NCBI GenBank assembly: GCA_964463925.1 | Contig: CAYXDV010000002.1 | Location: 19 to 64,018 of the forward strand | Reading direction: 5' to 3' | DNA: 64,000 nucleotides | Source: an uncultured Gammaproteobacteria bacterium | Lineage (GTDB): Bacteria > Patescibacteriota > Microgenomatia > UBA12405 | In this document: positions 18,399 to 57,440 of the stretch, piece by piece | Position numbering within the stretch: position 1 is the first letter of the stretch | Layout: every line of letters begins with the position of its first letter | The notes under the pieces: generated by a model | Databases searched by the model: none | What the model was told of the DNA's origin: nothing | Seen by the model: the letters and a program-made list of their open reading frames with translations, nothing else | Made by a program: the position numbers and the translations under genes

Positions 18399-19252
18399 CG
18401 AATTTCTTTTTTAATTTTATAACCAGCTATTCCAATTAAAATTATATACCAAACTACCACCAACCATTTTTGCGGCATAAAATTTATTTGAGCCACAGGC
18501 CACTTGGAAAAACTATCACTTAAATATATCAAGCAATCAACCAAGCATCCTGCTAAGTAGAATAGTTTTTGCCCAAGACAAGGAAAAATTATATATCCAA
18601 CAGTTCCCAAAAATCCCCCAGCCGTTATTAACTCTACCAAAGGCATCACTATCGGTCCTACAACCAAACCAATTAGGCTTACCTTACCAAAAGCCAGTCC
18701 CAACATCGGCCACAGCCACAGACTAACCCACCAATTTTTTCTGAATTGATCTATCAACCACAATCGACTCCGTGGTGCACTAGCCATACCCACAAAGGCC
18801 ACTATACTTAACCAAAAAGACAAAGATAAAAACATATCTCTGTCAGCCAAAAATACCATTAGACACACCAAAACCAAAGCTCTACTCCATACAAATTGTC
18901 TACCAATAATTTCTGCCCCATAGCGGATACATAACAATAGAATTGCTCTGACAATGGGTGGGTTAAAGCCAGATATCCAAGCATACCACCAACCCAGTAT
19001 TAAACCCACAACAATTGACTTTTTCCTACCAATCAACCAAGCAAACACTTCTATCGCTCCACCAACTAACCAAAATACATTTGCCCCACTTGCCACCATA
19101 ATATGTGCCAATCCAATTATTTTTGTTTGCTCGTAGTCCTGCCAACTCAAACCATTTTTAAATCCCCAAACGATTCCTTGAATATACCCAGCTTCTTCAC
19201 TTGGCAACAGTAGTTGTGGTATTGATAAAATTAGATCTCTGCCCCAATCCAT
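18395..19252 (-). CDS. comEC: ComEC/Rec2-family DNA-uptake channel protein (core competence domain only)
   Basis: Polytopic membrane protein. IIGLAHIMVASGANVFWLVGG matches the ComEC signature (tGtaHLlAISGlhv). 285 aa, with no metallo-beta-lactamase domain. Confidence 0.65.
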   Translation of the reverse strand: MDWGRDLILSIPQLLLPSEEAGYIQGIVWGFKNGLSWQDYEQTKIIGLAHIMVASGANVFWLVGGAIEVFAWLIGRKKSIVVGLILGWWYAWISGFNPPIVRAILLLCIRYGAEIIGRQFVWSRALVLVCLMVFLADRDMFLSLSFWLSIVAFVGMASAPRSRLWLIDQFRKNWWVSLWLWPMLGLAFGKVSLIGLVVGPIVMPLVELITAGGFLGTVGYIIFPCLGQKLFYLAGCLVDCLIYLSDSFSKWPVAQINFMPQKWLVVVWYIILIGIAGYKIKKEIR

Positions 19253-19301
19253 ACTTAATTTTACCCCTAGTACTTTCTTCCAAATTGTTTCACACTAAAG
19301 G

Positions 19302-19934
19302 GTGCCGGATATTTTACGCAAAATTCCTTGGCTCGATGGACTTCTGATTTTAGGTATTCTCTTGGTTAGTGCCGGCATAGGCTCAACTTTTAGATCGAAG
19401 CCAGCTTTTCCTTATTCTTCAGTAAAAGGGTCATCTACTACAACCGCTTCAAAACCAACTCAGAATCCACCAGTTCTGGTTCCAATTCAAGTCGACATTG
19501 CCGGTGCTGTACTCAAACCAGGGGTCTATAGTCTATCTTCCGGTAGTCGTATCCAAAATGTTTTAATCCTAGCCGGTGGCTTGTCGGCCAATGCCAATCG
19601 GCTTTGGGTAGCCCAAAATTTAAATCAAGCTCAAATCCTTGTTGACCAACAAAAAATTTACATCCCCAGTCAAAACGAAAGTCCCTCTTCCTACTCAAAT
19701 AAAACTAGTACCAATAACCAAGTTGGCACCTCCAGCTCTTCTACCAAGCCAAGTCTAAATCACAGTAGTCTAGAAGAGTTAGTCGCCGTCAATGGTATTG
19801 GCCCGGCCACCGCCAAAGCCATTATTGACTATCGTAATCAAAATGGAGACTTCAAAAGTCTAGAGGATCTAATGAAAATTCCCAACATTGGTGCCAAAAC
19901 CTTTGCCAAACTCGCCCCCCAGCTAAGTTTGTAA
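19302..19934 (+). CDS. comEA: competence protein ComEA (SLBB domain + tandem helix-hairpin-helix DNA-binding domain)
   Basis: N-terminal TM. SLBB-like segment VDIAGAVLKPGVYSLSSGSRIQNVLILAGG. C-terminal LEELVAVNGIGPATAKAIIDYRNQNGDFKSLEDLMKIPNIGAKTFAKL (HhH x2). Confidence 0.85.
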   Translation: MPDILRKIPWLDGLLILGILLVSAGIGSTFRSKPAFPYSSVKGSSTTTASKPTQNPPVLVPIQVDIAGAVLKPGVYSLSSGSRIQNVLILAGGLSANANRLWVAQNLNQAQILVDQQKIYIPSQNESPSSYSNKTSTNNQVGTSSSSTKPSLNHSSLEELVAVNGIGPATAKAIIDYRNQNGDFKSLEDLMKIPNIGAKTFAKLAPQLSL

Positions 19935-19955
19935 ACCATGGTTTATACTTAATTT

Positions 19956-20588
19956 ATGCCTGCCGCATTACTCCTTTGTCTGCCTGCCTTTTTGGCCTTT
20001 ATTTACAACTTCTTCCTTTCCAGTCTCGATTTTACTCCTCAACTGATTGCCATACTTTCAATTGCCCTAACCATTTACTCTCTAAAAACCAAAAACCTTT
20101 ATTTACCACTATTGGTGGCAATCATCTGCCTGCTTGTCTTTACTACCAGTGGGCTTACTTCGCCTTTTTTTATTCTCATTGATTTTCTTCTGTTTAGTAC
20201 TGCTTTTCTTTATCATCCTTTGCAAACCTTTACCCTAGCCAGTCTTCTGGTTTTTTTACTCGCCAACAGCATAGACGGCACTCTACGTTCCTGGGTCAAT
20301 TTAGGCGGACTCCTTCTAATTGTCCCCTTAGCCTGGCTGACAGCCAAATTCCAACAAAATTACACCAATAATCTACACGAGCTAGCCCAAGATCAAACCG
20401 ATATTGGCCTTTGGTTGCACCTAGAATTCAAACGGCGCTTACTAAAAAACTTGGAAATTCTAGAGTCACTTCTTAGTAAACCAGACTTATCCGAACGGAC
20501 CAAAAAAGATCTAGATACTGTCCTCCAACATGAAAAATATTTTCTTCACAGTAGTAAAAAATTATCTCAGGAACTAAGCCAAAAGTAA
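19956..20588 (+). CDS. hypothetical polytopic membrane protein with C-terminal cytoplasmic helical tail
   Basis: 4-5 predicted TM helices followed by a charged coiled-coil-like C-terminus. Confidence 0.5.
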   Translation: MPAALLLCLPAFLAFIYNFFLSSLDFTPQLIAILSIALTIYSLKTKNLYLPLLVAIICLLVFTTSGLTSPFFILIDFLLFSTAFLYHPLQTFTLASLLVFLLANSIDGTLRSWVNLGGLLLIVPLAWLTAKFQQNYTNNLHELAQDQTDIGLWLHLEFKRRLLKNLEILESLLSKPDLSERTKKDLDTVLQHEKYFLHSSKKLSQELSQK

Positions 20589-20594
20589 AACAAC

Positions 20595-21314
20595 TTGCTA
20601 CACTTATTCATGCTTCTGTGGCTAAATATTTTTTTTCATTTTCTCTATCCCCTTTTTGCCCAAAATTATTCTTCTTCCAATTTCAAAATCGATTTTGGCA
20701 ATATTAATCTAACTAGCGGCAGCAAAACCTCACCGAGTTTTAATCTAACCGATACCGTAGGCCAAAACGCTCCGGGACAATTTAACAGCTCCACTACCCT
20801 CATCAAATCTGGTTTTCAATATATTTATGATAACTTTAAATTTTTCAAGTTTTCCATTTCTAATCTAAATATCGCTTTTGGTTCTTTGGTTCCCGGTACA
20901 CCAAGCACAGCCACCAACACTCTGACTATTACCACTCCCTATGGTCAAGGATACAATATTTTAGCTCTGGAAACTAATGCTCTAAGTAACCAGGTAGGCA
21001 ACACTATTCCCGACACTAAGTGTGACTCTAATACTTGCTCCGAATCAACTTCCGGAGCTTGGACTAGTAATTCCATTTATGGTTTTGGTCTAAATGCCTC
21101 CGGAGCCGGTTCTAGTGGAATTTTTAGCGCTAGTAGTCAATACCGCCAATTTGCCAATCAAAATTTAGGAGAATCTCCACAAATAATTGCTACTGAAAAT
21201 TCTTCGGTAACTAATCGTCAAACTACCATCACTTACAAAATCAACATCCCAGCTACCCAAGCCTCTGGTGACTACCAAAACAAGGTTATCTTTATTGCCA
21301 TACCCAAATACTAA
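20595..21314 (+). CDS. secreted beta-rich surface protein (WxL-like paralog family member A)
   Basis: Signal peptide. Motif GNTIPDTKCDSNTCSESTSGAWTSNSIYGFG and C-terminal GDYQNKVIFIAIPKY are shared with 22229..23740. Confidence 0.6.
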   Translation: MLHLFMLLWLNIFFHFLYPLFAQNYSSSNFKIDFGNINLTSGSKTSPSFNLTDTVGQNAPGQFNSSTTLIKSGFQYIYDNFKFFKFSISNLNIAFGSLVPGTPSTATNTLTITTPYGQGYNILALETNALSNQVGNTIPDTKCDSNTCSESTSGAWTSNSIYGFGLNASGAGSSGIFSASSQYRQFANQNLGESPQIIATENSSVTNRQTTITYKINIPATQASGDYQNKVIFIAIPKY

Positions 21315-21317
21315 CCT

Positions 21318-22178
21318 ATGCCCTTCTCCCTTTCCCTCTCTCCACCCAAAACTCAACTCAATCTTAATCCCGGTCAGCCAGCTAGTAAAGCTTATGACCT
21401 AATCAACGATAGCGATTCTCCTCAAACTCTAGAACTTCAAGTTTTACCTTGGAAGCCAACTGGTTACGATGGTGATTTCCAATTCTCCAAACAAAATTCG
21501 CCTTTTAGTTTCCATATAAATAATGCCGATATGCAGGGAAAAAATACCTTTACGTTGGCCCCAGGACAAAAACAGCAAATAGTGTTGGGGCTTAGCACTC
21601 CCACTTCCGCAATGACAGGAGACTATTATTTCACTGTTTTTTTTAATCAGGTTAATCCCTTAAATCCAGAAATCAACTCAAGTCAAAGTTCTGGCCAAAT
21701 CGGTTCCAACTTATTAATCCACCTTGGCAGTTCCGAAGCCAAAACCTTAGCAGTTGATAAGTTGGATCTGCCAAAATTAGTTGATTCTGTTTTCTCGCCA
21801 TTAACTATCGCCGGCTTAGTTCAAAATCCAACCAATAGTTTTTTTAATTTTACCGGTTATTTAGAATTAAAGTACCAAAATAAGATCACCAGTCAAATCG
21901 TACTTGCCGGAGACACTATTTTAGCCAACCACGCTCGCTTCTTACGTTGTGTTGACAATCCAGAATCCAACAACCCACAAATAATTCCTTGTCAAATTAA
22001 AAAGCCATTACCTCCAGGAATTTATACGCTTACTCTCCATTCGACTGATGATATACAGCTTACTGGAACTACTAGTCACACTTTTTTTGTTTTTCCAATA
22101 TATCTCTCAATCATCTTTGCTCTGGCTATTCTTACCTCAACTTTAGTTTATCTCTTTTTTAGAAAACACAAAAAATAG
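21318..22178 (+). CDS. surface protein with C-terminal TM anchor (DUF916/CscA-like architecture)
   Basis: N-terminal LSLSPPKTQLNLNPGQ (compare LTAIPPRLELEGKPGE in 23742..24683). Beta-rich body. C-terminal TM helix plus short basic tail (FRKHKK). Confidence 0.55.
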   Translation: MPFSLSLSPPKTQLNLNPGQPASKAYDLINDSDSPQTLELQVLPWKPTGYDGDFQFSKQNSPFSFHINNADMQGKNTFTLAPGQKQQIVLGLSTPTSAMTGDYYFTVFFNQVNPLNPEINSSQSSGQIGSNLLIHLGSSEAKTLAVDKLDLPKLVDSVFSPLTIAGLVQNPTNSFFNFTGYLELKYQNKITSQIVLAGDTILANHARFLRCVDNPESNNPQIIPCQIKKPLPPGIYTLTLHSTDDIQLTGTTSHTFFVFPIYLSIIFALAILTSTLVYLFFRKHKK

Positions 22179-22228
22179 CTCCCGCTTGACTATCTTGATT
22201 TTTTAGACCATATTTATCTATATATAGA

Positions 22229-23740
22229 ATGAAAATTATAAAATTAACCACTGCCCTATTCGTAGTCTTTTTGTTTTACGCCTGGTTACACGTAGTCCAG
22301 CCAAATGCAGCCAACTTTACCAACATCAAAGATACTATGTCTTCCTCACAGTTATCTTATTTTGCTCGTATGGGTGCAGGTGTCTCTGGCGGTCAAAACG
22401 TGGCCACCATTTATACTTCCGGCTTCCCCAGCAATACAACTTCGAATTTGTTTGTAGGAGATACTATTGCTATCGGCCATACTGGACCTAGTACTGCACT
22501 AACACCTTATGTTGTCAGTGGCATTGGAAATACTGCTACTTTTAGCGTATCTTCCGCTCTAAATGTGGTCAATGCTGGAACATCTGTAGCCATCATCGCC
22601 ACTAGGTCAGCTACCCATACTCTAACTTTTGTACCTGTTAACGCCATTAGTAACGGAGCTTTCGAATTTCTAATCAAGGCCACCAGTCGCTCTGGCGAAA
22701 ACCGAGCCGACGGTATACCCGATCAACAAGGTTTTGATTTTGGTATGGCTGTTGGTTCTACTACTATTGGTCCAGGCACCTCCCTGGCAGCTGCTGATGT
22801 TGCATGTCCAACCGGTCTGGGTACAACAACGGTCACCCTCGGTCCTGGCACCACTGCTGTTGTAGGTGGCAATACCTATTTTTCCATTAAATGTGGCTAT
22901 TCAGGCACCAACTTGAATACTGGTACAACTTACACCATGGTTATCGGCCGTGCCCTGTCTACTGGTAGTCAACTGACTAACCCTGCTCCAGGCTTAAGTC
23001 ACACTGAAGGCTCAACTGAAACAGCTGGCACTCCCACTGATATTTATAGTTACTACATTCGCCATTTAAATTCTGCTGGCACAGTCATTGACTCTACTCA
23101 AGGTAAGTTAGCTGTAATTGAGGCTGTTCGTGTCACTGCCACCGTTGATCCAATTATTTCCTTCTTTATCGACAATGTTGGTAGCGGTTCTACGGCTACA
23201 AGTGGCACTGCAATTGCTGTTGGTGAAACTCGCTGTGGTGCTCCTATGGGCTCTGGTCAATCTAGTGTCAACGGCACTTCAGCCACTTTTGGTAGCTTAA
23301 GTATTAATGCTTTTAGTACCATTGCCCAACGCTTGTCCGTAGTTACTAACGCAGCCAATGGCTACACTCTAACCGCCTACGAAGATAAATACATGACCAA
23401 CGGAGTAGGTCAAACAATACCCGATACTTCATGCGACTCCAGTTGTACTTCCAGCACTCCAACCGAGTGGAATACAGCCACTAATTATGGTCTTGGCTAT
23501 TCTCTGGAAGCTCTAAATGGCACCACTACCCAATCTTTTAATTACAACGATTCTGGTAACACTTTCCGTTCGAAACGTTTCGGGTTTGGCTCAGGCAACG
23601 CCGCTACCCTGCTCTCTAGAACTAGCGTTCCGGCCAACACTGAACGTACTTATGTCTGCTATCGTATCGCTATTGGTACAGCTCAACCTGCAGGTGATTA
23701 CGAAGGAAGAGTTATTTATACTGCCACCGCTACTTTCTAA
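22229..23740 (+). CDS. secreted Gly/Thr-rich surface protein (WxL-like paralog family member B)
   Basis: Signal peptide. GQTIPDTSCDSSCTSSTPTEWNTATNYGLGYS and C-terminal GDYEGRVIYTATATF parallel the motifs of 20595..21314. Confidence 0.6.
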   Translation: MKIIKLTTALFVVFLFYAWLHVVQPNAANFTNIKDTMSSSQLSYFARMGAGVSGGQNVATIYTSGFPSNTTSNLFVGDTIAIGHTGPSTALTPYVVSGIGNTATFSVSSALNVVNAGTSVAIIATRSATHTLTFVPVNAISNGAFEFLIKATSRSGENRADGIPDQQGFDFGMAVGSTTIGPGTSLAAADVACPTGLGTTTVTLGPGTTAVVGGNTYFSIKCGYSGTNLNTGTTYTMVIGRALSTGSQLTNPAPGLSHTEGSTETAGTPTDIYSYYIRHLNSAGTVIDSTQGKLAVIEAVRVTATVDPIISFFIDNVGSGSTATSGTAIAVGETRCGAPMGSGQSSVNGTSATFGSLSINAFSTIAQRLSVVTNAANGYTLTAYEDKYMTNGVGQTIPDTSCDSSCTSSTPTEWNTATNYGLGYSLEALNGTTTQSFNYNDSGNTFRSKRFGFGSGNAATLLSRTSVPANTERTYVCYRIAIGTAQPAGDYEGRVIYTATATF

Positions 23741-23741
23741 T

Positions 23742-24683
23742 ATGTCAAAATCTGCCCAAAAACTAAATTTCATTTTTCTTCTTGCTACTATTTTTTATTT
23801 GTTTACCAAATCAGCAATAGCCCAAGATGCCACTGCCAATGGTTTTGGTCTAACTGCTATCCCGCCCAGACTTGAATTAGAAGGAAAACCAGGAGAAGTA
23901 ATCACTAAAGTCTTAAAAATTCGCAATGAAACCAATCAAGAAAAAGTCTTATCTTCAAGCATTAAGGATTTTGTTGTCCTAGACGAAAAAGGGACACCTG
24001 TTCGTATTGAAAACCTTCCAGACGGTTCTAACAAATGGGCTCTGTCCCCTTGGCTGCAAATAAGTCAAACTAATTTCAAATTAAAACCAGGAGAAACCAA
24101 AGCTTATACTGTTACCGCCATCATCCCAGATGATGCCACTGCTGGTGCTCATTATGCTGTTGTTCTACACTCAATCAGCAACGAAACAATTTTAGGTGCC
24201 AGTGGAAATGCTATTCAGCCAGAAGTTGGAACTTTAATTTATTTGCGCATACCTGGAGAAATCAAAGAAGAGGCTACTGCCCTAATTGATGTCCCTAAAT
24301 TTTCTGAATTTGGTCCAATAAACCTAAAAACAACAGTTTTAAATAAATCTGACATCCATCTAGCTCCACAAGGTCAAATAGAAATTACTGATCTTTTGGG
24401 TCGCAAATTCGCCCTACCTTTTGAAGCAGGAAATATCTTTCCACAAACCAGCCGAAACTTTAATACTCTACTCAACAAAAAATGGCTTTTTGGTCGCTTT
24501 AGAGCTGAGCTAGTAGCTACCTATGGTAGTCAAGGCCAACTCTTGAACCCTGTGGTTTTCTTCTGGGTATTGCCAATCCGTTTAATCTTAGCCTTAATAA
24601 CTATTTTCTGCTTACTTATAGGTATTATTCTAATCTTCCAAACTCCAAGTGGCCAGAAAAATAAATCTGCCAATCGTCCTTAG
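23742..24683 (+). CDS. surface protein with signal peptide and C-terminal TM anchor (DUF916/CscA-like)
   Basis: Start reassigned to MSKSAQKL (the ATG immediately after the upstream stop). LTAIPPRLELEGKPGE motif. C-terminal TM helix plus basic tail. Confidence 0.6.
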   Translation: MSKSAQKLNFIFLLATIFYLFTKSAIAQDATANGFGLTAIPPRLELEGKPGEVITKVLKIRNETNQEKVLSSSIKDFVVLDEKGTPVRIENLPDGSNKWALSPWLQISQTNFKLKPGETKAYTVTAIIPDDATAGAHYAVVLHSISNETILGASGNAIQPEVGTLIYLRIPGEIKEEATALIDVPKFSEFGPINLKTTVLNKSDIHLAPQGQIEITDLLGRKFALPFEAGNIFPQTSRNFNTLLNKKWLFGRFRAELVATYGSQGQLLNPVVFFWVLPIRLILALITIFCLLIGIILIFQTPSGQKNKSANRP

Positions 24684-25458
24684 CTACTTAGCCGCCGTTC
24701 CACTTACTGCTCGAATTGGCTATAGTCAGCCTTTTACTCTTTTTGGTTATACTAGCAGTAATTCTTACGTTCAGCTTCAAGCACCGTCGACCTCAGCTCA
24801 AACTATATCCGATAGCACTGGCTATTTTGAGTTTAGCCAAATTATCCTTCCAACTCAAGCGAAAGAATTGTGCTTTACTAGCAAAGACTCTGCAAATCGT
24901 AGCAATCCTCCAATTTGCATTGTTACTCCAAATTTTTCAAAAAATTACCAAAAGGTAGGGCCAATATTACTTGCACCAACTCTGAGTTTGTCAAATTCCA
25001 ATCCAAAACCGGGAGAAACTCTTATTGCTTCAGGCCAAACTATCCCCAACCGTCCCCTTACAATAAATCTCTATGCCCAAAATCCCACTGCCCCCAATTT
25101 TCCCAAATCAGCTATGGCAGCCTCAAATACCCAAATTTTACAGATTCCTATTCAAGCTGATACTCAGGGAAATTTTAGCCTCAACTTACCCACCACCAAA
25201 GCCACAGCATACAAAGTAATTGCTCAGACGATTTTTGAAACCAACAATCTATCTCCGCCTTCTTTCCCACTCTATTTTTCTCTACCAACCCTTCTGATTT
25301 TCTTGTTACAAATTCTACCAATTTTCGTCTTGTTTCTACCACTTTTGTGTCTGTTTTTCTTTCTCCTTTTTATTCAACACCAAACTAAACCACATTTTTA
25401 TCCCGCACTGTATCCTAAACAATTAATTCCCTACTCCAATTTATGTCCAAAATCCTAA
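24649..25458 (+). CDS. Ig-like surface protein with C-terminal TM anchor
   Basis: Beta-rich body with a very hydrophobic C-terminus (LLIFLLQILPIFVLFLPLLCLFFFLLF). The track start overlaps the upstream gene by 35 nt, so the true start is uncertain. Confidence 0.45.
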   Translation: MARKINLPIVLSYLAAVPLTARIGYSQPFTLFGYTSSNSYVQLQAPSTSAQTISDSTGYFEFSQIILPTQAKELCFTSKDSANRSNPPICIVTPNFSKNYQKVGPILLAPTLSLSNSNPKPGETLIASGQTIPNRPLTINLYAQNPTAPNFPKSAMAASNTQILQIPIQADTQGNFSLNLPTTKATAYKVIAQTIFETNNLSPPSFPLYFSLPTLLIFLLQILPIFVLFLPLLCLFFFLLFIQHQTKPHFYPALYPKQLIPYSNLCPKS

Positions 25459-25859
25459 AGCTATTTATTCTACTAGTTCTCTTACTCTCCTTGTTTTTTA
25501 GCAGCTATTACCTGGCCAAAATCACTGTTCTTAGCAGTAGGGCTTCCAACTATGTTACTGTTCTCAACCCAGACAATTCTTATGTCTTTGCCTCTCCTGT
25601 TGCTGCCAAAGCTGACAACGATCAACGTATTCGAATTACTGTATTTTTACTAAACAACCAGGGACTGCCAGTTGTTGGAGCCACAGTCAAACTAACCACT
25701 TCCCGTCAAACTGTAAATATTAGTCAGGTCTCCCCACAAACTGACGAAACGGGTAAGGCTTATTTCGATTTAAACAGCAATCTGGCTGGGCCAGCTACTA
25801 TCCTAGCTAGTATAGAATCCCAAACCCTACCCCAAAAAATCACCGTCAGTTTCTACTAA
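25443..25859 (+). CDS. membrane-anchored bacterial Ig-like (Big-1/invasin-like) domain protein
   Basis: N-terminal TM. IRITVFLLNNQGLPVVGATVKL...TDETGKAYFDLNS...ATILASI matches the Big_1 domain pattern. Confidence 0.5.
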   Translation: MSKILKLFILLVLLLSLFFSSYYLAKITVLSSRASNYVTVLNPDNSYVFASPVAAKADNDQRIRITVFLLNNQGLPVVGATVKLTTSRQTVNISQVSPQTDETGKAYFDLNSNLAGPATILASIESQTLPQKITVSFY

Positions 25860-26479
25860 GCCAGCCTTTTCTCCACTACTCCCCAATCAATTATCTGCCG
25901 AACGGCTGCCAAGTATTCAGCTCTCCTGTTTTGATACTTTAAATAATAAGCATGTTCCCACACATCAATTCCCAAAAGTGGCTTCTTACCTTGCATAACT
26001 GGATTATCTTGGTTAGCCGTAGTCACAATCTCTAGTAAACCATTGCCACCAATCACTAGCCAAACCCATCCGCTGCCAAATCTACTCAAACCAGCTTTAG
26101 TCATTTCTTCCCAAAAAGTAGCCAAACTCCCAAATCTTTCTTCCAACTTCTTCTGCAAACTTTCACTTGGTTTATTATCCACCTCTGGTGATTTTAACTG
26201 CTCCCACCATAACCTGTGATTGAAATCACCCCCAGCATTGTTAACTACTCCGCTTCTTATCATCTCAGGGAGTAAAGAATAACTAAGTAGCATTTGCTCT
26301 GTTGTCATTTCAACAAATTTTTGTCCTGCAATCTCTAGATTTGGATTTGCTTCTAATATTTTATTTAGATTATTTACATAAGCCTGATGATGAGCACTCC
26401 AATGTATCTCCATTGTTTTTGCATCAATTACTGGCTCCAAACTCTCAAAACTATAATTTAATGGTCTCAACGTGATCAT
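25856..26479 (-). CDS. sodA: Fe/Mn superoxide dismutase
   Basis: HWSAHHQAYVNNLN and DVWEHAYYLKYQNRRAEY are canonical Fe/Mn-SOD metal-ligand segments. 207 aa. Confidence 0.95.
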   Translation of the reverse strand: MITLRPLNYSFESLEPVIDAKTMEIHWSAHHQAYVNNLNKILEANPNLEIAGQKFVEMTTEQMLLSYSLLPEMIRSGVVNNAGGDFNHRLWWEQLKSPEVDNKPSESLQKKLEERFGSLATFWEEMTKAGLSRFGSGWVWLVIGGNGLLEIVTTANQDNPVMQGKKPLLGIDVWEHAYYLKYQNRRAEYLAAVRQIIDWGVVEKRLA

Positions 26480-26486
26480 ATATTTA

Positions 26487-26921
26487 TTATTTAAATGTTA
26501 ATATAACTTCGCCAGGTAATGGAACGCCGTTGACGCTAGCAGTCAATGCAAACTGTCCAGAGACACTTGAAGTTGCTTCAAAACTAGCCATACCATCAGT
26601 ATCCGTCTTTGCTTCCCTGCCTTCCAAGCTTGGCAAGCCACTTACTGTCACCACTTTAGCGGCCACCCCTCTACTTTCTGCATCGCGGACAAAAACCAAG
26701 AATTTGGCAACATCTTTACCATCAGCTACAGCCGTTAATTTAGATCCCAAAACATAAGACTCAGACAAAGAAATACTCCCCGCAGGCGCTGCCTTGGTCA
26801 ATAAAACCACCCCTCTAGCAACCAAGTTGCTACCCAGCAATAACAAAAAAGCTAAGCCCAAAAACAAAACAGTCAAATTTCTTAAATCTTTATGTTCTCT
26901 CAACCACATCCATAGATTCAT
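26487..26921 (-). CDS. membrane-anchored Ig-like (Big-1-like) domain protein, paralogous architecture to 25443..25859
   Basis: N-terminal TM. VAAKVVTVSGLPSLEGREAKTDTDGMASFEATSSVSGQFALTASV follows the same Big_1-type pattern. Confidence 0.5.
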   Translation of the reverse strand: MNLWMWLREHKDLRNLTVLFLGLAFLLLLGSNLVARGVVLLTKAAPAGSISLSESYVLGSKLTAVADGKDVAKFLVFVRDAESRGVAAKVVTVSGLPSLEGREAKTDTDGMASFEATSSVSGQFALTASVNGVPLPGEVILTFK

Positions 26922-27629
26922 TATATTTATTATATAGTATATATTGAATTAATATTACTGATATCTACGCGTGCAAATATTACAAGACTAAATTAGCAAA
27001 AAAATGAGTTATCTGCTATCAAACGGTCTGCAAAAAGATTCCGAATAGTATTGAAGAAAACATACACTAAAAGATTAGAATCAAACACAGAGAAACACCC
27101 ATATAAATACTAAATTTTCCTAGTATTCTTTCTATTCGCAAACCAGTGATACTCTTTCGGGGTAGAAAAATACATTTTTTAAAAGACAATATCTAGCTAA
27201 AATACTAGTATCAAACATGATCAGCCCGCAATTTTACTTTTCCGCATTTCTCCGAAACATATTTTTTTGCCTGTGATCATTTTTACAGTATATATATCAG
27301 TTCTATATATATCGATAGTATATAGTTCCCTGTTTTTAGTACTAGTGAAAATTAACCGCAACTAATTTTCGGCAAAAATTATATATTTTGATCATTTCAT
27401 TAAATATATCAAACAAAGACAAACCTTCTCTAGTTAGTCCTTGACACAGCTATTATAGTAGTTCATCATGATAATTAATTACAAATTTATCGTTGATAAA
27501 CATGTATAAAAAAGCACTATTTGAATCTGAGAAATTATCACCGCAAAATTTAATCCCCTGGCTTATTTTGTTGTCAGCCTACTTCTTTATTTGGCGCTAA
27601 AAAAAACTTTTAGTTTTTATTAACATCTA

Positions 27630-28049
27630 ATGCTTGCTGCCTTTTCTCTCTGGTTAAAAAATAAACCGTATACCACCCATACACAGAGAAATTACCTAGT
27701 AGATATCCGTAAATTTTTAACTTGGACCCAATCTCAACCAAGCTCAAAATTTAACCAAAAACTCCTAATTAGCTATTTATCCCTTATCTCTCAGGAAAAA
27801 AGCTATTCAAGACAGTTGGCATCTATAAAGCTCTTTTGCCAGTTTGCCAAAGACCAGAACTTGACTGCTTCTGATATATTTGCCTCTAGCCTTAAAGCTA
27901 TTACTCATCTCGGTAATTCAGAAATTATCAATCAGCAAAACCTACTTGCGGAATATGCTCATTGGTTAAAACTCCAAAAAGTCTCCAAGTCCACTCTTCG
28001 AAACTATCTTAGCGACCTTAATGATTATCTAAACTGGCTCCATGCTTAA
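27630..28049 (+). CDS. stand-alone tyrosine-recombinase N-terminal SAM-like (core-binding) domain repeats, no catalytic domain
   Basis: Two repeats resembling XerD/phage-integrase N-terminal domains (AFSLWLKNK...TQRNYLVDIRKFLTW and LLAEYAHWLKLQKVSKSTLRNYLSDLNDYLNWL). The stop overlaps the ATG of the giant gene (ATGCTTAA), +1 frame. Confidence 0.45.
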   Translation: MLAAFSLWLKNKPYTTHTQRNYLVDIRKFLTWTQSQPSSKFNQKLLISYLSLISQEKSYSRQLASIKLFCQFAKDQNLTASDIFASSLKAITHLGNSEIINQQNLLAEYAHWLKLQKVSKSTLRNYLSDLNDYLNWLHA

Positions 28050-31000
28050 CCTAGGTCAAATTTCCAGTCATCAAAAGCAAGAAGCCTATTTAAACAAACT
28101 AAAATCCAGCGGCACCAGTCAATCCACCTTAGCCAGAAAACAAGCCAGCCTAAACACCTTTAATCGCTTTGCTGCCATAAAATTTCCTAAATCTACTACA
28201 TCAAAAATAGTATCTACCACCTCAAAGTCAATTAAATTAGCACCAAGCTTTAATCCACTGAAAATTTTAATACCCGTAACTCTTTTCCTTCTAATAGGAG
28301 CCCTAACCTATGGATTTTTTCGTCAAACTATTCAGCAGGCAGTTCAAAGCTTTGCTTACCCGAATACCCCAACACGTCCAACCAGGCGTTTATCTTTCCA
28401 GGGTCGCCTAACAGATACCACTGGTACCCCTATTACCAGTCCTAGTAACGTTAAATTCGGTTTGTGGAACGCTGGCACTGGAGGTACTGAACTATATAAC
28501 ACTGGAACAGGTGGAACAGTAGTACCAGATCAAAATGGTATTTTTTCAGTCTTAATAGGTGATCAAGTTGGCACTGAAATACCAGCCAACATCTTTACTG
28601 AAAACCAAAACATCTACTTAGAAATTACCATGAACCCCAGCTCATCAGCAGAGACCATGACTCCCCGCCAACAGATAGCTAGTGTTGGTTATGCCTTAAA
28701 TTCCGAAACTTTGCAAGGTTACCCCCCACTTGGAGTAGGACAGTCAAATGTTGTATTGGTTTTAGATAATACTGGTGTTTTGAATCTTGGCTATACCTCC
28801 CCAACATTCAAATCTACTGCTGGTACTTTTGGCCTTGAAGGCCAAGCTATGACTCTAAAAGCCACAGATACCAGCAATGGCAGCCTCAATCTAAACCCAG
28901 ACGGTACTGGAAATGTAAACATGATTTTCGAAGGAACTTCTGCTGTTGGGGCTACTGGGTTCCTGAGTTTGACAAATGCCAATTTAAGCGGTGGCGCTTT
29001 GATCTATTCTAATATCAACAATACTAATCGTGGCTACGATTTCATCAATTTTCAAAACTATAATCCAGCCACCACTACTCTAGCCAGTCGTTTTCGAGTT
29101 GATGCCTACGGCAATGCTTCTATTGGTGGCACCATGTCTGCTGTTAATATTGCAGTTTCGGGCAATTCAAATATTGGTGGCACTCTTAATTTAACCAACA
29201 CCCCTCAGGGTGTCGGAACGACCGTTCTCTATCTAAGCAACACTGGCGTAGTTACCCAGGGCACATTACCAGCAACTTCTAGTGGAATTGCTTCTGGCTA
29301 CAATGGGCTCAGTATTGGCGGCACCGCAATTGGACTAGGAGGCACTCTAAATCAGAACACCAATATTGGCACTAGCAACTTTTATCTTCGTTTTACCGGA
29401 CAGACTAACCAAGAAGCTTTATATATAAATAATGCAGGTGACCTAGGTGTTGGCACTACTAATGCCTATGCTAATGCCCAGTTAAGCCTAGAAGGTGGCT
29501 ACCTCGGCTTAGAAAATGGTGATTTTGGCGGCAGCAGAGGTATTCGTTTCCGCAACAGTGCTGATACAGGAACCGCATCTATTTCTGGCGGCGGAATATA
29601 TCAAGCAAGCAATGATGTTCTTTATCTTCAAGATGGAGCAACAAACATAACCATCCTTCGCAATAGTATTGGTGGTGAAAAACTTAGGATTACTAACTCA
29701 GGCATTGGTATCACAGGTGGAGGAATCATTTATCCAAGTAGCGATTCTACTAATGGTTTATCTATTGCCAATTCGTCTGGTACCAAATTCGTCGGTTTTG
29801 ATACCACTAATCAAAGGGTCGGCATTGGTACCACAATTCCAAACGACACTTTTTCCGTAAACAATCAATTCACAATTAATAGTTCTGGGGTTGCCAAAGC
29901 AGCCAATGGTTCTACCACCACTCCGTCATACAGTTATCTAAACGATACTTCTAGTGGTCTTTATCTAAACACAACCAGTGATATTCGAGTTTCCATCGGC
30001 ACCACTTCAGTAGCTCAATTTACACCACTCGGAATGACTATTGGTAAAAGCCTGGGTTATGACACTGGTGCCACCCTGCGTCTTAGTAACAGTTCATCTG
30101 GTGGCAGGAATAGTCTCGTTTTATTAAATGCAAACACTGGGGTTGGTAGTAGTAGCTCTGCCTTAACTTGGAAAAATGCATCGAATACAACTCTTTGGGA
30201 AATGGCCAATGATAATGGTGCCAACGGAGGACAGAATTTTTATCTCTACGACGGCCTCGCCGGACAATATCGTTGGCACGTAAATTCTTCAGGCAATATG
30301 GGCATTGGTACTGTAAATCAAACAGGTAAACTCTCAGTAGTTGGCTCCCAGGGAGACACTCGCTCAGTATCAATTGATAATCGTGAAATAAAATTCCGAG
30401 GAGATGGTGTGGCCCATATGTCAATCTTTGGCCCAGACACTAGTAAATCTTACTTAACAATCCAGAATACTAGCAGTAGCTCAGCCGTTGGAACAACAGG
30501 CGCTGATCTATTAACAGTACTGTCTTCTGGCTCAGTTGGTATTGGCACAACTTCTCCAAGAGGTATCCTGCAGGTTGGCCAAGATATCGGTGGTACTGGA
30601 CCAATTTTAACTTTCTTATCAGCAGGAACAACAGGTAAATTTGGTGTTGGGACCACCAACCCAGTCGATACGTTAGAAGTTGTCGGCAATGCCGTAGCCA
30701 ATACCTTTGTCGACCGCCAAAATATTAGTTATTTACTTGACCCAGCTCAAACCAGCAACACAGCCTCTTCTCTATCTCTTACATCTACAGGATCCGTTCG
30801 CTTCAACTCTACTTACAACACTGGCTGGAAATCTATCGATACTGGAAACGATACTCTAATTAAGCTTGAAGCTCAAAGCAATAGTGCCACTAATCGTGGC
30901 TTGATTCTTGGTATTGCCACTACTGGCGCCGGCGGAACCATGACTCCAGGCTTGTGGGATTCACAGTCTTTATATCTAAAAAACAATGGTTACATTGGCA

Positions 31001-34000
31001 TCGGTACCACTAATCCAAGTTATCGTTTGGAGGTTGCTGGTTCAGTCCGAATTGGTGGAACTTTATTTGATACCACAAGTCAAGCAGGTACGGCAGGCCA
31101 AGTTTTAATGAGTACTGGAACCGGTGTCAGCTGGGGTTCGGGTTCCACTCCTACCAATGGTTTGCAATACATCGGCAACAGTATTGGTCTTGGTGGAACT
31201 CTGGTCCAAAACACAACCATTGGAACTAGTAGTTTCTACTTAAATTTTTTGGGTCTTGGTAACACCCAATCACTTTATTTGGCATCCAGCGGTTATATTG
31301 GTATAGGTACCACCACTGCCAACGCCAAACTTAGCTTGGGCAACAATGTTGCTACTGGATTTTTAGATACATATGGCGAATATCAAATTTTATTATTTGA
31401 TGCCGGTGGAGCCGGCGGTTCTTATGGATTGGGTGTTAAAGGAAGCACTTTAGTAATGAATAGTGGTGCCGGAGCTTATAGTTTCGACCGTGCCGGTAAT
31501 GCCACAACTCTGTATATGGACACCTCCGGTAATGTCGGTATTGGCACCACTAGCCCTTCTGGTAGATTAGATGTTGTTAATGGGACAACTAATTATTTAG
31601 GAACTAATCAATTTGCAGATGGAATAGCTGAATTGGGCTCTAGGGGAACAGGAAACAGATATTCATATATCGATTTTCATGGAGATGATACCTATACAGA
31701 TTTTGGCTTAAGAATAATTCGTAACAATACTGGGGCCAATGCCGACTCTCAAATAAGTCACCGAGGCACAGGACAGCTTGCCATTCGCACCGAAGAAGCT
31801 GGAAGTAATATCGGACTGTGGACAGCAGCTGGAGAAAGAGTGCGTATTACTGACACTGGCAATGTTGGTATTGGCACCACGGTCCCAAGAAATGGTTTAG
31901 AATTAGCCAAATTAGACAGTAATTATATTACATCGCTTAGGATTGGAGGAATAACTGGGGGTAATACAGGGGTCGGTCTCAGTACAGAAACCTCTAGACA
32001 CCAAATTCTCTTTTCTAGCTGGAGAGATACTCAAACCGATACCGTAGGAGCCAAAATCGCTGCCATAAACTTAAATAACTGGTCGGCTGGAAATGCTGCT
32101 GTACAAAAAACTGACTTAGCTTTTTTTACTCTTGGAACAACCCCAACCAGCACAGACAATACAACTGAAAAAATGAGATTAACTAGTAACGGCTATTTAG
32201 GAGTAGGTACCACCAATCCTTATGCTGGCCTAGATGTCAAAGGTGGAGCTTTTTTTGATGGTAATCTGTTTAACTATAATACGAATGGTGTCAATGGAAT
32301 TTCTGACGAAGCTAGTTTGGTACCCAATACCGGTTTTGAGATAGTCGATCCCAATAATTCAAACTTAGCTATTGGTTGGACTGCTCTTATGGTCGGTAGC
32401 TCTGGATTACAAACCGTAACTCGAGAAACCGGCAGTACTATGGTCACCCAAGGTAATGCTGCTGTAAAAATTACTCGAGGTGGAACTTCGGGTCAAGGTT
32501 ACATTCTACTTTCCTCTTGTATTCCTATCAGCCAAAATCGCAATTACATTCTCTCTTGGATCGATATTGGCACCACCAGTGATAATAACGGTATGTACGG
32601 AGCCTATGAGGGTTATACCACTCTATCTGATTGTGCCAGTCGTAATATAGGTGCCGGAACTTCTGGCAATAGTGTTCAAACATATTATGGAGCAACTGCC
32701 GAAGGAACACTGACCAAAAACACCTTCAAACCTCATTACACCACACCGTTTAATGCTGGCACAGGATATAAATGGGCTCGTTTTGGTTTCCGCAGCAACA
32801 CTTTTGCTGTTAGTGGTGGCACTGCTTATTTTGATGCCTTCAAAGCCTGGACTGATGATAATTATTCATCCAACACCCAAGGTGGAGTCGACCTTGCAGA
32901 AAATTATCCCGTCAATCCAGATCAAAACATTGAACCTGGAGATCTTGTCGCCCTATCCCCAACTCTTTCCACAGAAGCTGGAATCAATGTTTTAGAAAAG
33001 TCAACTACCCCCAATCAATCCACTTTATTTGGAGTAGTTTCTACTAAACCAGGGTTGGTTTTGGATGATTCTATACCTTACACTCGTGCTGCCATTGCCC
33101 TAGCTGGTCGGGTTCCAATCAAAATTAGTCCCAACTCAGCACCAATTTTAGCTGGAGATTATATTACTAGTAGTTCTTACGCTGGTTTTGGACAAAAATC
33201 ACTTTCAGCCGGAAAAGTCATTGGCCAAGCATTGGAATCCTGGACTCCAGAATCAGGTAAATCAACCATCACTATCCTTATCAATAACACCTACTACACT
33301 CCACAAATATTCCTCACAAACTCCGGACACATCCAAACAAATTTTGTAACAGATTCCAAAGCTTTAGCCAGCTTGGGACTTGAAAGTAGTCAGGATGCCA
33401 TAGTTCATGCTAACTATGATCTTGTTGACCAACTTGGAAATACTTTGAATCGTACTGAACAGTTTAGTAATATTTTGAGTGCAAAAATTATGACTGGATT
33501 ATTGGAAGCCAACAATATTGTAACAAACATTACCACAAGTAAAACTACTATTACAAAAGACCTCTATACTGAGACCATCTCTCCTCTGGGCAACAACACT
33601 CAAATTAAAATAAATTCAGACTTAAATGTTGCCGGCAATTTACTTGCCACCGATATTGCTACTACAAAATTGATTGCTTCTGAAGCCAGTATTAGTGGCA
33701 CCCTTTATGCTGACAGGATTGTTTCCAAAGAAGGCAACTTCAATGATTTGTTAACAAGCAGAGTTGTCGCCCTTAGAACTGAATTGCAAACATTCATCAG
33801 TAGCAACACAGCTCCTGCAATGCCACCCTCTACCATCGCTAGTCAAATACCTCTTTGGTCCTTTGATGTAGGCACAAGTGCCACTGAAATCAAAGGTGAT
33901 TTAAAACTATCTGACAATTTAATAGTTGCTGCCAAACTACAAGTACAGGGACAAGCCCAATTAGCATCTGCCCTAGTTGCTCATGATCTCACAATCGACC

Positions 34001-34542
34001 AGATCCAAATATCACAAAACTATATCAAATCATCTACAAACAGCCTTGCCATCCAACCACAAAAGACAGGCATAGTGACCATTCTTGGCGATCTGTTGAC
34101 TCTTGCAGACAATGGATCTGTCACTATTAATGGTGATTTAACAGTATCAGGCACCATTGCTAGTAGTGGTGTTTTAACTAGCAACTTAATAGCAACAGAT
34201 GCCAGCATTAGCGGAACGCTAACCTCTGGCAAATTGAATATTGCTACTGATAGTGCCACTCTGATTATCGCTCAGGATAATAACCTCAACCAAACAGCCG
34301 GCTCTTCTGCTCAAATTATCAGTAATGCCAGTGCAGGCCTGGCAACTCTACCGGCAGGCAGTACTGAACTCATTGTTCAATCAAATCAGCTGCATTCCAA
34401 TTCTATGGTCTATTTAACTCCAAATTCTTCCACCCAAAATCAAGTTGTCTATGTCAAGTCTAAAGATGACAAAAGCTTTACGATCGGTATCGATACCCCG
34501 CTACCCACTTCCATTCCTATCAACTGGTGGATAATTAATTAG
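28042..34542 (+). CDS. giant membrane-anchored surface protein (2166 aa) with tail-fibre-like GIGTTxP repeats
   Basis: Uninterrupted 6.5-kb ORF. The N-terminal ~40 aa carry a third SAM-like repeat (AYLNKLKSSGTSQSTLARKQASLNTFNRF), followed by a TM helix (ILIPVTLFLLIGALTYGFF). At least eight copies of (V/I)GIGTT(S/N/T/V/I)P...L(D/E/Q/S)V, as in phage tail-fibre proteins. Gly/Thr/Asn-rich, beta-rich. Confidence 0.9.
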   Translation: MLNLGQISSHQKQEAYLNKLKSSGTSQSTLARKQASLNTFNRFAAIKFPKSTTSKIVSTTSKSIKLAPSFNPLKILIPVTLFLLIGALTYGFFRQTIQQAVQSFAYPNTPTRPTRRLSFQGRLTDTTGTPITSPSNVKFGLWNAGTGGTELYNTGTGGTVVPDQNGIFSVLIGDQVGTEIPANIFTENQNIYLEITMNPSSSAETMTPRQQIASVGYALNSETLQGYPPLGVGQSNVVLVLDNTGVLNLGYTSPTFKSTAGTFGLEGQAMTLKATDTSNGSLNLNPDGTGNVNMIFEGTSAVGATGFLSLTNANLSGGALIYSNINNTNRGYDFINFQNYNPATTTLASRFRVDAYGNASIGGTMSAVNIAVSGNSNIGGTLNLTNTPQGVGTTVLYLSNTGVVTQGTLPATSSGIASGYNGLSIGGTAIGLGGTLNQNTNIGTSNFYLRFTGQTNQEALYINNAGDLGVGTTNAYANAQLSLEGGYLGLENGDFGGSRGIRFRNSADTGTASISGGGIYQASNDVLYLQDGATNITILRNSIGGEKLRITNSGIGITGGGIIYPSSDSTNGLSIANSSGTKFVGFDTTNQRVGIGTTIPNDTFSVNNQFTINSSGVAKAANGSTTTPSYSYLNDTSSGLYLNTTSDIRVSIGTTSVAQFTPLGMTIGKSLGYDTGATLRLSNSSSGGRNSLVLLNANTGVGSSSSALTWKNASNTTLWEMANDNGANGGQNFYLYDGLAGQYRWHVNSSGNMGIGTVNQTGKLSVVGSQGDTRSVSIDNREIKFRGDGVAHMSIFGPDTSKSYLTIQNTSSSSAVGTTGADLLTVLSSGSVGIGTTSPRGILQVGQDIGGTGPILTFLSAGTTGKFGVGTTNPVDTLEVVGNAVANTFVDRQNISYLLDPAQTSNTASSLSLTSTGSVRFNSTYNTGWKSIDTGNDTLIKLEAQSNSATNRGLILGIATTGAGGTMTPGLWDSQSLYLKNNGYIGIGTTNPSYRLEVAGSVRIGGTLFDTTSQAGTAGQVLMSTGTGVSWGSGSTPTNGLQYIGNSIGLGGTLVQNTTIGTSSFYLNFLGLGNTQSLYLASSGYIGIGTTTANAKLSLGNNVATGFLDTYGEYQILLFDAGGAGGSYGLGVKGSTLVMNSGAGAYSFDRAGNATTLYMDTSGNVGIGTTSPSGRLDVVNGTTNYLGTNQFADGIAELGSRGTGNRYSYIDFHGDDTYTDFGLRIIRNNTGANADSQISHRGTGQLAIRTEEAGSNIGLWTAAGERVRITDTGNVGIGTTVPRNGLELAKLDSNYITSLRIGGITGGNTGVGLSTETSRHQILFSSWRDTQTDTVGAKIAAINLNNWSAGNAAVQKTDLAFFTLGTTPTSTDNTTEKMRLTSNGYLGVGTTNPYAGLDVKGGAFFDGNLFNYNTNGVNGISDEASLVPNTGFEIVDPNNSNLAIGWTALMVGSSGLQTVTRETGSTMVTQGNAAVKITRGGTSGQGYILLSSCIPISQNRNYILSWIDIGTTSDNNGMYGAYEGYTTLSDCASRNIGAGTSGNSVQTYYGATAEGTLTKNTFKPHYTTPFNAGTGYKWARFGFRSNTFAVSGGTAYFDAFKAWTDDNYSSNTQGGVDLAENYPVNPDQNIEPGDLVALSPTLSTEAGINVLEKSTTPNQSTLFGVVSTKPGLVLDDSIPYTRAAIALAGRVPIKISPNSAPILAGDYITSSSYAGFGQKSLSAGKVIGQALESWTPESGKSTITILINNTYYTPQIFLTNSGHIQTNFVTDSKALASLGLESSQDAIVHANYDLVDQLGNTLNRTEQFSNILSAKIMTGLLEANNIVTNITTSKTTITKDLYTETISPLGNNTQIKINSDLNVAGNLLATDIATTKLIASEASISGTLYADRIVSKEGNFNDLLTSRVVALRTELQTFISSNTAPAMPPSTIASQIPLWSFDVGTSATEIKGDLKLSDNLIVAAKLQVQGQAQLASALVAHDLTIDQIQISQNYIKSSTNSLAIQPQKTGIVTILGDLLTLADNGSVTINGDLTVSGTIASSGVLTSNLIATDASISGTLTSGKLNIATDSATLIIAQDNNLNQTAGSSAQIISNASAGLATLPAGSTELIVQSNQLHSNSMVYLTPNSSTQNQVVYVKSKDDKSFTIGIDTPLPTSIPINWWIIN

Positions 34543-53821: not shown

Positions 53822-53943
53822 GTTCTGGCCGCGACCTATCTTCGGCACCCCGTTGCCGGGGCACTATTGTCAGCGCTATCGTGTTTCACGACTCTGTTCG
53901 GAATGGGAAGAGGTGGTACCACAGATGCTCTGGCGACCAGAAC
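53822..53943 (-). rRNA. rrf: 5S ribosomal RNA
   Basis: The reverse strand reads GTTCTGGTCGCCAGAGC...CCCATTCCGAACAGAGTCGTGAAACACGATAGCGC...GGTCGCGGCCAGAAC. This is the 5S helix I/III/IV/V pattern, about 122 nt. Confidence 0.85.
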
Positions 53944-56370: not shown

Positions 56371-56510
56371 CATGTCCAACACTCGAAATCTAGACATTCA
56401 AAACAAAATAAATTTTTTCGAGAACGTCCCCGCAGCGTAGCGAGGAAGTCCGGCGAGAAAAAATTACGTTTTGTTTTGAAATAAGTTTAGGTTTCCAGTG
56501 TCAGACACAG
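56371..56510 (-). repeat. 23S rRNA intervening sequence at the helix-25 position (hairpin with conserved 17-19-bp base stem)
   Basis: rRNA-sense TGTGTCTGACACTGGAAAC...about 100 nt AT-rich with a GC-rich core...GTTTCGAGTGTTGGACATG. It sits between the conserved GAAACC...ACAAGC and CCTATTGAAGAATGAGTC flanks that correspond to E. coli helix 25. Confidence 0.55.
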
Positions 56511-56905
56511 GCTTTGTCTGTTTGTTAGCATATGGTTTCAGATCTATTTCACTCCGGTAACTACCGGTGTTTTTCACCTTTCCCTCGCGGTACTAGTTCA
56601 CTATCGGTCCGCCAAAGTATTTAGCCTTGGAGATTGGTCTCCCCAGATTCCTACGGGATTTCACGTGCTCCGCAGTACTCAGGTACCAAACCATACTTTT
56701 ACTAGTTTTCGGATACGGGACGTTCGCCCTTTTTAGTCGACTGTTCCAAGTCGTTCTCCTGACTTTCAAAGTAATTATGTCTGGCCCTACAACCCCTATC
56801 TTGCGATAGGTTTAGGCTCTTCCGTTTTCGCTCACCGCTACTGACGGAATCTTTTTAATTTCTTTTCCTCCGGGTACTTAGATGTTTCAGTTCCCCGACT
56901 TACCC

Positions 56906-57049
56906 AGCTGTCCAACACTCGAAACTTGTTATACCTATTTAAATTTACGAAATAACTAATTTTTCGCACGCAATCATGCACGGCGCGTGAGTACAAAAAA
57001 TTATGTTATGAGTAAAAATTTAAATACAAGTTTCCAGTGTCAGACAGCT
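56906..57049 (-). repeat. 23S rRNA intervening sequence at the helix-9 position, homologous termini to the helix-25 element
   Basis: rRNA-sense AGCTGTCTGACACTGGAAAC...about 105 nt AT-rich...GTTTCGAGTGTTGGACAGCT. It sits between CCGAATGAGGAAAC...ATGGAAGC and GGGTAAGTCGGGGAACTGAAACATC. Confidence 0.55.
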
Positions 57050-57397: not shown

Positions 57398-57403
57398 TCG
57401 CAC

Positions 57404-57440
57404 CCCATTATTATACCTAAAAGAGCTATATAAATAAAAA
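57404..57440 (-). promoter_or_regulatory. candidate promoter of the tRNA-Ala/23S/5S transcript (perfect -10 TATAAT)
   Basis: The minus strand reads ...TTTATT(-35-like)...N17...TATAAT, then 12 nt to the tRNA 5' end. The -35 is weak and AT-rich. Confidence 0.35.

Follow-up and report, generated by a model that had tools for sequence, protein, structure and literature searches.

A probable divergent Pam-type pilus operon of Microgenomatia, with anchored chaperone-like proteins that resemble DUF916/WxLIP

What might be built by a run of consecutive genes that begins with two alternating pairs of secreted, subunit-like proteins and membrane-anchored partners? The genes in question, g1 to g6, occupy positions 20595-25859 of a 64,000-nucleotide (nt) stretch of DNA, referred to here as the window, from contig CAYXDV010000002.1 of assembly GCA_964463925.1. 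A first-pass annotation had described a six-gene plus-strand operon at this place and had likened it to the WxL/DUF916 cell-surface loci of Firmicutes. All six open reading frames (ORFs) were recovered, consecutive on the plus strand with intergenic spacings of -35 to +50 nt, and the comparison was partly supported, being half right: the anchored proteins are DUF916-like, but the secreted ones are not WxL proteins. We consider it quite probable that the cluster is a Pam pilus operon of a Microgenomatia (Shapirobacteria-like) type, which would produce an usher-less fibre whose subunits are joined through donor-strand exchange at the exterior of the cytoplasmic membrane; it is most suitably classed as a divergent, streamlined form of the Pam pilus that was recently described from the Candidate Phyla Radiation (CPR). 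The sequences of g1 to g6 are genuine genes and not chance ORFs: for each of them, homologues at 30-65% identity, arranged in the same order, number in the hundreds.

A life attached to other cells is presumed for CPR bacteria, and the way in which contact is established is poorly understood. No CPR-specific fibre had been described before the Pam pilus, which is so far known only from one cultured Saccharimonadia species. The pilus forms the thin filaments of Candidatus (Ca.) Mycosynbacter amalyticus (Saccharimonadia), in which cryo-electron microscopy led to two-domain pilins, PamA and PamB, whose inter-domain linker strand completes the truncated immunoglobulin (Ig)-like C-terminal domain of the adjacent subunit (Troman et al. 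2026; bioRxiv 10.64898/2026.03.03.709456). According to the same preprint, the linker is the most conserved part of PamA and PamB, Pam pilins have cysteine pairs, and the pam operon encodes the pilins PamA, PamB and PamE, a single-domain tip protein (PamT) and no usher. PamC and PamD are PapD/FimC-like chaperones with a C-terminal membrane helix, and PamR is an anchored terminator that is RbmA-like (two fibronectin type III domains) and has a C-terminal transmembrane (TM) helix and an extra N-terminal strand. Signal peptides are reported at the N-terminus of every Pam component, and genes for a tail fibre-like protein and for ATP synthase are found near pam operons. The preprint describes PamA and PamB as exclusive to the CPR, reports remote PamA homologues in Microgenomatia, and mentions neither WxL nor DUF916.

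The link to this system starts from the two secreted proteins. The product of g1 (20595-21314, 239 amino acids (aa)) consists of a signal peptide, a highly conserved segment at residues 23-80 and a C-terminal domain of Pam-pilin type (residues ~81-239) with a CxxxxC pair; its start codon may instead be the ATG at 20610. The larger g3 (22229-23740, 503 aa) also has a signal peptide, followed by an N-terminal domain (residues ~28-290) within a region of ~265 aa, a linker (residues 293-314) and a C-terminal domain of the same type as in g1 (residues ~315-503), with six conserved cysteines; conserved cysteine pairs occur in both proteins. Pairwise alignment of g1 to the C-terminal 159 aa of g3 gives 28% identity (E 9e-10), and comparison of the two family profiles with hhalign gives a probability of 99.7% (E 5e-26). 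The alignment takes in VGxTIPDTxCDS...W...YG(F/L)G and ends GDYQNKVIFIAIPKY / GDYEGRVIYTATATF. The two alternating paralogue types of the first-pass annotation, g1/g3 and g2/g4, are both real, and the motifs quoted for them are present, i.e., GxTIPDT...YG(F/L)G and the C-terminal ends in g1/g3 and the PP...PG start in g2/g4.

A Pfam search with g1 and g3 gave no match. Against NCBIfam, g1 matches CPR_pilus_PamT (NF058579) with E 8e-13, residues 5-239 lying on positions 7-241 of the 241-position model, and it covers the full length of CPR_Pam_pilin_C (NF058581; E 3.7e-7, 30 bits). Residues 347-503 of g3 likewise cover CPR_Pam_pilin_C from end to end (E 1.3e-4, 22 bits). The relatives behave in the same way: all 51 of the g1 relatives sampled match CPR_Pam_pilin_C (best E 1.5e-12) and 49 of these 51 match CPR_pilus_PamT (best E 8e-16), while CPR_Pam_pilin_C is matched by 23 of 43 g3 relatives (best E 1e-6), with no other NCBIfam model matched by the g3 set and none beyond these two by the g1 set. 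By these sequence comparisons, the relationship of g1 and g3 to the Pam models appears to be one of significant remote homology, below curated membership. A match to pilins had been named in the first-pass annotation as something that would count against its WxL interpretation, and for g1 and g3 it is Pam pilin models that were matched. Searches of PDB sequences with g1, g3 and g5 and with the g1 and g4 family profiles returned nothing relevant at E<=10; the Pam structures are apparently unreleased.

Conservation within the subunits follows a pattern that also recalls the Pam pilins. In g3, the linker at residues 293-314 is the most conserved segment of the protein (conservation 0.84, vs 0.61-0.64 for the two domains), and V300, R301, V302, T303, A304, D307 and P308 are invariant or nearly so; no linker strand of the VxVxAxV type was seen in g1. 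The C-terminal domain of g1 has a confident structure model. Its residues 23-80 (window 20661-20834), among which many a G, N, T, D or P is invariant, are the most conserved part of g1, yet their predicted local distance difference test (pLDDT) score in the AlphaFold model is below 50, which suggests that this segment may fold only on a partner.

The anchored proteins g2 (21318-22178, 286 aa) and g4 (23742-24683, 313 aa) form the second pair of paralogues, with 22% identity over 193 aa (pairwise E 2e-6) and an hhalign probability of 99.5% between family profiles (E 1e-22, 267 columns). Both begin with (L)xxxPPxxxLxLxPG, and both have a single C-terminal hydrophobic segment (residues 255-281 in g2; TM helix at 279-300 in g4) followed by a basic tail. 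In the AlphaFold model of g4 (pLDDT 86.4), a signal helix precedes two beta-sandwich domains, and a further helix lies at the C-terminus. Structure searches with this model, confined to PDB libraries, placed two kinds of protein at similar rank, namely the chaperone CfaA (Foldseek E 1.1e-11) and the WxL-interacting protein (WxLIP) entries 9i25_C and 9i1y_A (both E 1.9e-11). On the basis of the model, g4 is predicted to be a two-domain PapD-like chaperone with a TM helix, i.e., to have the architecture of PamC and PamD, and g2 is a chaperone-like protein of the same DUF916/PapD type that has no signal peptide.

The resemblance to DUF916 noticed in the first-pass annotation holds for these two proteins. 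Among Pfam families, DUF916/WxLIP_PGBD (PF06030) gives the best matches to g2 and g4, and it is matched by 44 of 49 g4 relatives (best E 2.6e-6) and by 9 of 20 g2 relatives, with g2 itself at E 0.015. The remark that such pairings had not been described outside Firmicutes is outdated, since Shapirobacteria orthologues are already titled 'DUF916 domain-containing protein' in NCBI and UniRef, and the operon type was published in 2026 as the CPR Pam pilus. Profiles were also compared with WxLIPs from seven genuine WxL clusters, taken from Enterococcus and Listeria plasmids, alongside five negative controls. The g4 ectodomain aligned with Bacillota WxLIP at an hhalign probability of 72% (P 3.5e-5), and its domain 1 alone at 79% (P 1.6e-5). 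The g2 family (P 2.2e-4) was collinear with WxLIP across 216 columns that cover both domains and run through the YFDLxxxPG...N hallmark region, and the negative controls gave P 0.07-0.68. We conclude that g2 and g4 combine the Pam-chaperone architecture with an apparent remote kinship to WxLIP. The g4-type family is very large, with 11,022 matches at E<=1e-3 and 1,251 at E<=1e-30 when its profile was searched against 1.84 billion cluster representatives (50% identity clusters); the best 150 matches are close relatives throughout. Some g4 relatives (P0442, P0488 and P0491) reach 640-800 aa and contain two or three separate regions that match the profile; these may be tandem or fused chaperone-like proteins.

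The remaining products of the operon are g5 (24649-25458, 269 aa) and g6 (25443-25859, 138 aa), which correspond to the two further anchored proteins of the first-pass annotation. The beta-rich g5 has a C-terminal hydrophobic segment (residues 206-244) and a cytoplasmic tail. At the mature N-terminus of its family there is a motif, S-V-[ST]-[VI]-S-A-x-I-[GP]-x-N, that resembles the V-R-V-T-A-T-V-D-P of the g3 linker. Pfam matches of g5 are weak and Ig-like, and its sequence matched neither RbmA nor any other model. From its layout and motif, g5 is a candidate terminator and anchor, in a role like that of PamR. The last gene of the operon, g6, encodes an Ig domain of the invasin/intimin type (Big_1, E 7.4e-16) behind an N-terminal hydrophobic segment (residues 1-25), and is syntenic in 25 loci. 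By hydropathy, g3, g4 and g6 have a hydrophobic segment at the N-terminus, and g2, g4 and g5 have one at the C-terminus.

The operon probably starts one gene earlier than was first annotated, at g0 (19956-20588, plus strand), which ends 6 nt upstream of g1. This gene encodes a 210-aa membrane protein with six hydrophobic segments (by hydropathy) and a helical C-terminal tail of ~80 aa, and no match to it was found in Pfam or NCBIfam. It is taken to be part of the unit because the block g0-g1-g2 is adjacent in 65 of the 85 loci that were fetched, and it is possible that g0 is an unrecognised component of the pilus system. A scan of 19000-28200 for promoters and terminators found no more sites than shuffled sequence. 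The gap between g2 and g3 holds two promoter-like hexamer pairs, to which no weight is given.

The arrangement is conserved. A g1 relative is encoded in 229 GTDB species genomes, and the homologues carry the names Shapirobacteria, Woesebacteria or Patescibacteria, which places the source among the ultrasmall CPR bacteria of the class Microgenomatia. The full order g0-g1-g2-g3-g4-g5-g6 occurs in 21 of the 85 loci, with three more in which g3 is duplicated; the g3 gene is also the one that gives some relatives a second large subunit. Across Shapirobacteria and Woesebacteria, the operon is syntenic together with g0 and a downstream gene for a giant fibre-like protein. Median identities to the window proteins, from 29 complete loci, are 35% for g0, 50% for g1, 32% for g2, 45% for g3, 48% for g4, 36% for g5 and 42% for g6. 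The idea that the operon might be under diversifying selection found no support, although the orthologues are too diverged for dN/dS (the ratio of nonsynonymous to synonymous substitution rates): as judged from identity, the pilins appear to be the best conserved genes of the cluster and give no sign of hypervariability. Many of the third-party metagenome-assembled genomes that bear the operon (L006-L085) have record titles such as 'uncultured Gammaproteobacteria', 'Pseudomonadales' or, in one case, 'Candidatus Methanoperedens'. These titles are probably placeholder names or mislabels, the gene content being Microgenomatia-like.

The direct results are the homologies, the fold of g4, the pattern of conservation and the synteny; from them we infer a pathway of assembly along the following lines. 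The subunits g1 and g3 would be exported by Sec. The C-terminal domain that they share would be an incomplete Ig-like sandwich, completed at first by a strand of a membrane-tethered two-domain chaperone, which would be g4 and probably also g2; a candidate for the capping strand of g4 is a hairpin at residues ~146-170, which is modelled at lower confidence. The chaperone strand would then be exchanged for the conserved linker strand (VRVTATVDP), the candidate donor strand, of the next g3, so that repeated exchange would yield a linear polymer. The PamT-like g1 has no such linker strand and would cap the distal tip. At the other end, the look-alike N-terminal strand of g5 would plug the last subunit, and its C-terminal membrane segment would tether the fibre. 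By analogy with Ca. Mycosynbacter, the fibre may mediate contact with a host cell.

How closely does the cluster follow the Pam system? The correspondences extend over much of the operon: g1 is a small single-domain subunit that matches the PamT model end to end; g3 is a large two-domain subunit with a C-terminal domain that matches that of the Pam pilins remotely, a linker that is the most conserved part and conserved cysteine pairs; the chaperones are PapD-like with a C-terminal TM helix, and there is no usher; g5 is beta-rich and would be C-terminally anchored, with a candidate extra N-terminal strand; a giant fibre-like protein is encoded nearby; and the host belongs to the CPR. The differences begin with gene content. 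One major pilin (sometimes two) replaces PamA, PamB and PamE, and there are extra conserved genes, namely g0 with its six-segment membrane protein and the genes of two small Big_1 proteins. The neighbours differ as well, being ComEC/ComEA and a superoxide dismutase (SOD) rather than the ATP synthase, CorB and MFS genes found with Pam.

Several observations weigh against the assignment. The similarity is remote, with scores under the NCBIfam cut-offs: the PamT score of g1 is 48 bits, far under the equivalog cut-off of 240 bits, and the Pam_pilin_C scores of g1 and g3 are 22-30 bits, vs a curated cut-off of 55 bits. Neither the chaperones nor g5 match NCBIfam models. The first chaperone, g2, is without a signal peptide in every orthologue (74/74), whereas all Pam components are reported with one. 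No ATP synthase genes are present in the window, where the sole match to ATP-synt_ab is Rho. Filaments have been seen for Pam and none in this lineage, and donor-strand exchange is here a matter of inference.

Another reading is the type of complex with which the first-pass annotation began. In a display complex of the WxL/WxLIP (Csc) type, every g1 or g3 molecule would be fixed individually at the surface through strand complementation by g2 and g4, and would present its N-terminal part to a partner without polymerising. DUF916 is the best Pfam family of g2 and g4, and the profile comparisons with genuine WxLIPs (P 1.6e-5 to 2.2e-4, vs controls at or above 0.07) point the same way. The gene content is isomorphic to that of WxL clusters (PDB 9i1y, 9i25; Hassan & Williamson 2022/2023), in which a small and a large secreted protein likewise share a C-terminal domain and are accompanied by a two-Ig protein, anchored through a TM helix at its C-terminus, and by small anchored proteins. 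For both systems, the prediction is that a strand from another protein complements the secreted partner; in WxL clusters, a strand of WxLIP is predicted to complete the WxL sandwich. WxL proteins are believed to be monomeric when they bind peptidoglycan. The subunits themselves, however, do not belong to this family. They show no detectable WxL motifs, the Pfam WxL model (PF13731) found nothing in g1, g3 or 51 g1 relatives even at E<=10, and hhalign comparison of the pilin C-terminal domains with the small and large domains of genuine WxL proteins gave P 0.14-0.45, the level of the controls. By eye, the C-terminal strands do look alike (IxIP...GDYxxxVxFxA..P vs LxVP...KYxTTxTWxL..P), but homology to WxL was not supported, as hhalign did not rise above the controls. 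DUF3324/WxLIP_HBD (PF11797) was not detected by sequence in the anchored proteins, and the family profile did not reach the PDB WxLIP sequence at E<=10. Each cluster here has two chaperone-like genes rather than one, and no sortase or LPXTG protein, while LPXTG proteins are encoded in the Bacillota clusters, with a class A sortase in three of the seven. The matches of g1 and g3 are to Pam pilin models, and the near-invariant linker strand of g3 is what a self-polymerising subunit would require, whereas WxL proteins are not thought to polymerise. We consider a monomeric display complex unlikely; as an analogy, the comparison with WxL clusters seems apt, even though homology of the subunits is undetectable.

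A less structured alternative is that the genes encode various adhesins or envelope proteins, Ig-like and either secreted or anchored, which would form no joint assembly, e.g., S-layer-like or matrix proteins, or a fibre of the TasA/camelysin or sortase type. Ig-like sandwiches are generic, many of the weak Pfam matches are to unrelated E-set domains (FixG_C, fn3_5, NPCBM_assoc), and g6 and the small protein encoded nearby are plain Big_1 domains. The strict alternation of subunit and chaperone, co-conserved in one order over hundreds of genomes, argues instead for a joint function. The matches to the Pam models are specific, the fold is that of a two-domain chaperone and not of a single Ig domain, and no camelysin, TasA or sortase signal and no LPXTG motif was found. 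This explanation strikes us as very improbable.

The Pam-type pilus that we favour also invites comparison with chaperone-usher pili, represented by class 5 CFA/I (CfaA), archaic Csu (CsuC) and the classical Fim, Pap and Caf systems. The subunit fold groups with chaperone-usher pilins, and donor-strand complementation followed by exchange would be common to both. The likeness is at the level of fold only, with none in sequence, and neither an usher ORF nor any match to the Pfam families PapD_N, PapD_C or Fimbrial was found for the cluster. Unlike chaperone-usher pili, the system has no usher and no outer membrane, and its chaperones are anchored by a C-terminal helix. A large N-terminal domain is added in the major subunit, whose donor strand would be an internal linker rather than an N-terminal extension.

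The absence of a signal peptide from g2 recurs in its orthologues. In 74 of 74 orthologues there is no room for one, with a median of seven codons between the upstream in-frame stop and the first conserved strand. Hydrophobic N-termini are present in 80 of 83 orthologues of g1, 52 of 52 of g3 and 36 of 42 of g4. The basic tail that follows the membrane segment of g2, together with a cysteine pair in its second domain (Cys211/Cys225, 95% conserved), nevertheless argues that the ectodomain would lie outside the cell. In the window, g1 and g2 share a reading frame and are separated only by TAA and CCT. Production of a g1-g2 fusion by read-through or frameshifting was ruled out, given that the frames differ in relatives and that in-frame stops lie 2-7 codons upstream. 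As a speculation, g0 is a candidate helper in the export of g2. In one Shapirobacteria genome (GCA_041665485; locus L002, 8887-9171), a 94-aa PD-(D/E)XK_3 ORF sits exactly between the g1 and g2 orthologues, and looks like a small mobile insertion.

The window adds the anatomy of a Microgenomatia version of the pilus, a compact cluster of seven to eight genes, and it offers two leads beyond the preprint. One is that a chaperone without a signal peptide is not accommodated by the current model of assembly. The other is that the WxL-interacting proteins of Firmicutes appear to have their nearest known relatives in these chaperones, as judged from Pfam, profile comparison and structure. The WxL surface system is tied to virulence and adhesion, and its mechanism is still debated. 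It is possible, though we regard it as rather doubtful, that the Pam chaperones and Bacillota WxLIP (DUF916-DUF3324-TM) are true homologues, that Pam and WxL/Csc are branches of one ancient usher-less pathway of single-membrane bacteria, in which a membrane-anchored chaperone serves a strand-deficient subunit, and that g2 is exported without a signal peptide by a new route, perhaps aided by g0. An implication of such homology is that WxL proteins would be pilin-like, or at least handled by donor-strand complementation. The homology would also be at odds with the statement that Pam is without relatives beyond the CPR.

The surroundings of the operon are in part conserved with it. A second small membrane-anchored Big_1 protein is encoded on the minus strand at 26487-26921 (Big_1 E 1.2e-11), its gene being directed towards the operon from the far side of the SOD gene; it is conserved in three relatives (L001, L002 and L004). 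The two single-Big_1 proteins, each with an N-terminal anchor, are thus encoded face to face across the superoxide dismutase gene, and both are conserved beside the operon. Further downstream, at 27630-34542 on the plus strand, a 139-aa protein that consists solely of an integrase N-terminal SAM-like domain (Phage_int_SAM_1, E 5.6e-11) overlaps the start of a fibre-like giant of 2166 aa. The giant has a weak match to the N-domain of the Bdellovibrio mosaic adhesive trimer (Bdello_MAT_N, E 5e-5), its orthologues carry Peptidase_S74, and it fits the 'tail fibre-like' neighbour of pam operons; the SAM-like and giant pair is syntenic with the operon in three relatives. Upstream, the syntenic neighbours are ComEC and ComEA.

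The window as a whole is AT-rich with a strong strand skew, and its 23S rRNA carries insertions. The rRNA region (53823-58724) is unusual in that the 23S rRNA is 3185 nt long, compared with a model of 2925 nt, and a GH18 (chitinase-like) ORF at 57569-58612 lies between tRNA-Ala and tRNA-Ile. No 16S follows this region, and genes with cohesin and dockerin domains are found there instead (58774-61674). At 61695-63922, a tandem pair of RimK-type ATP-grasp genes precedes a small gene for a putative zinc/aspartyl protease on the minus strand.

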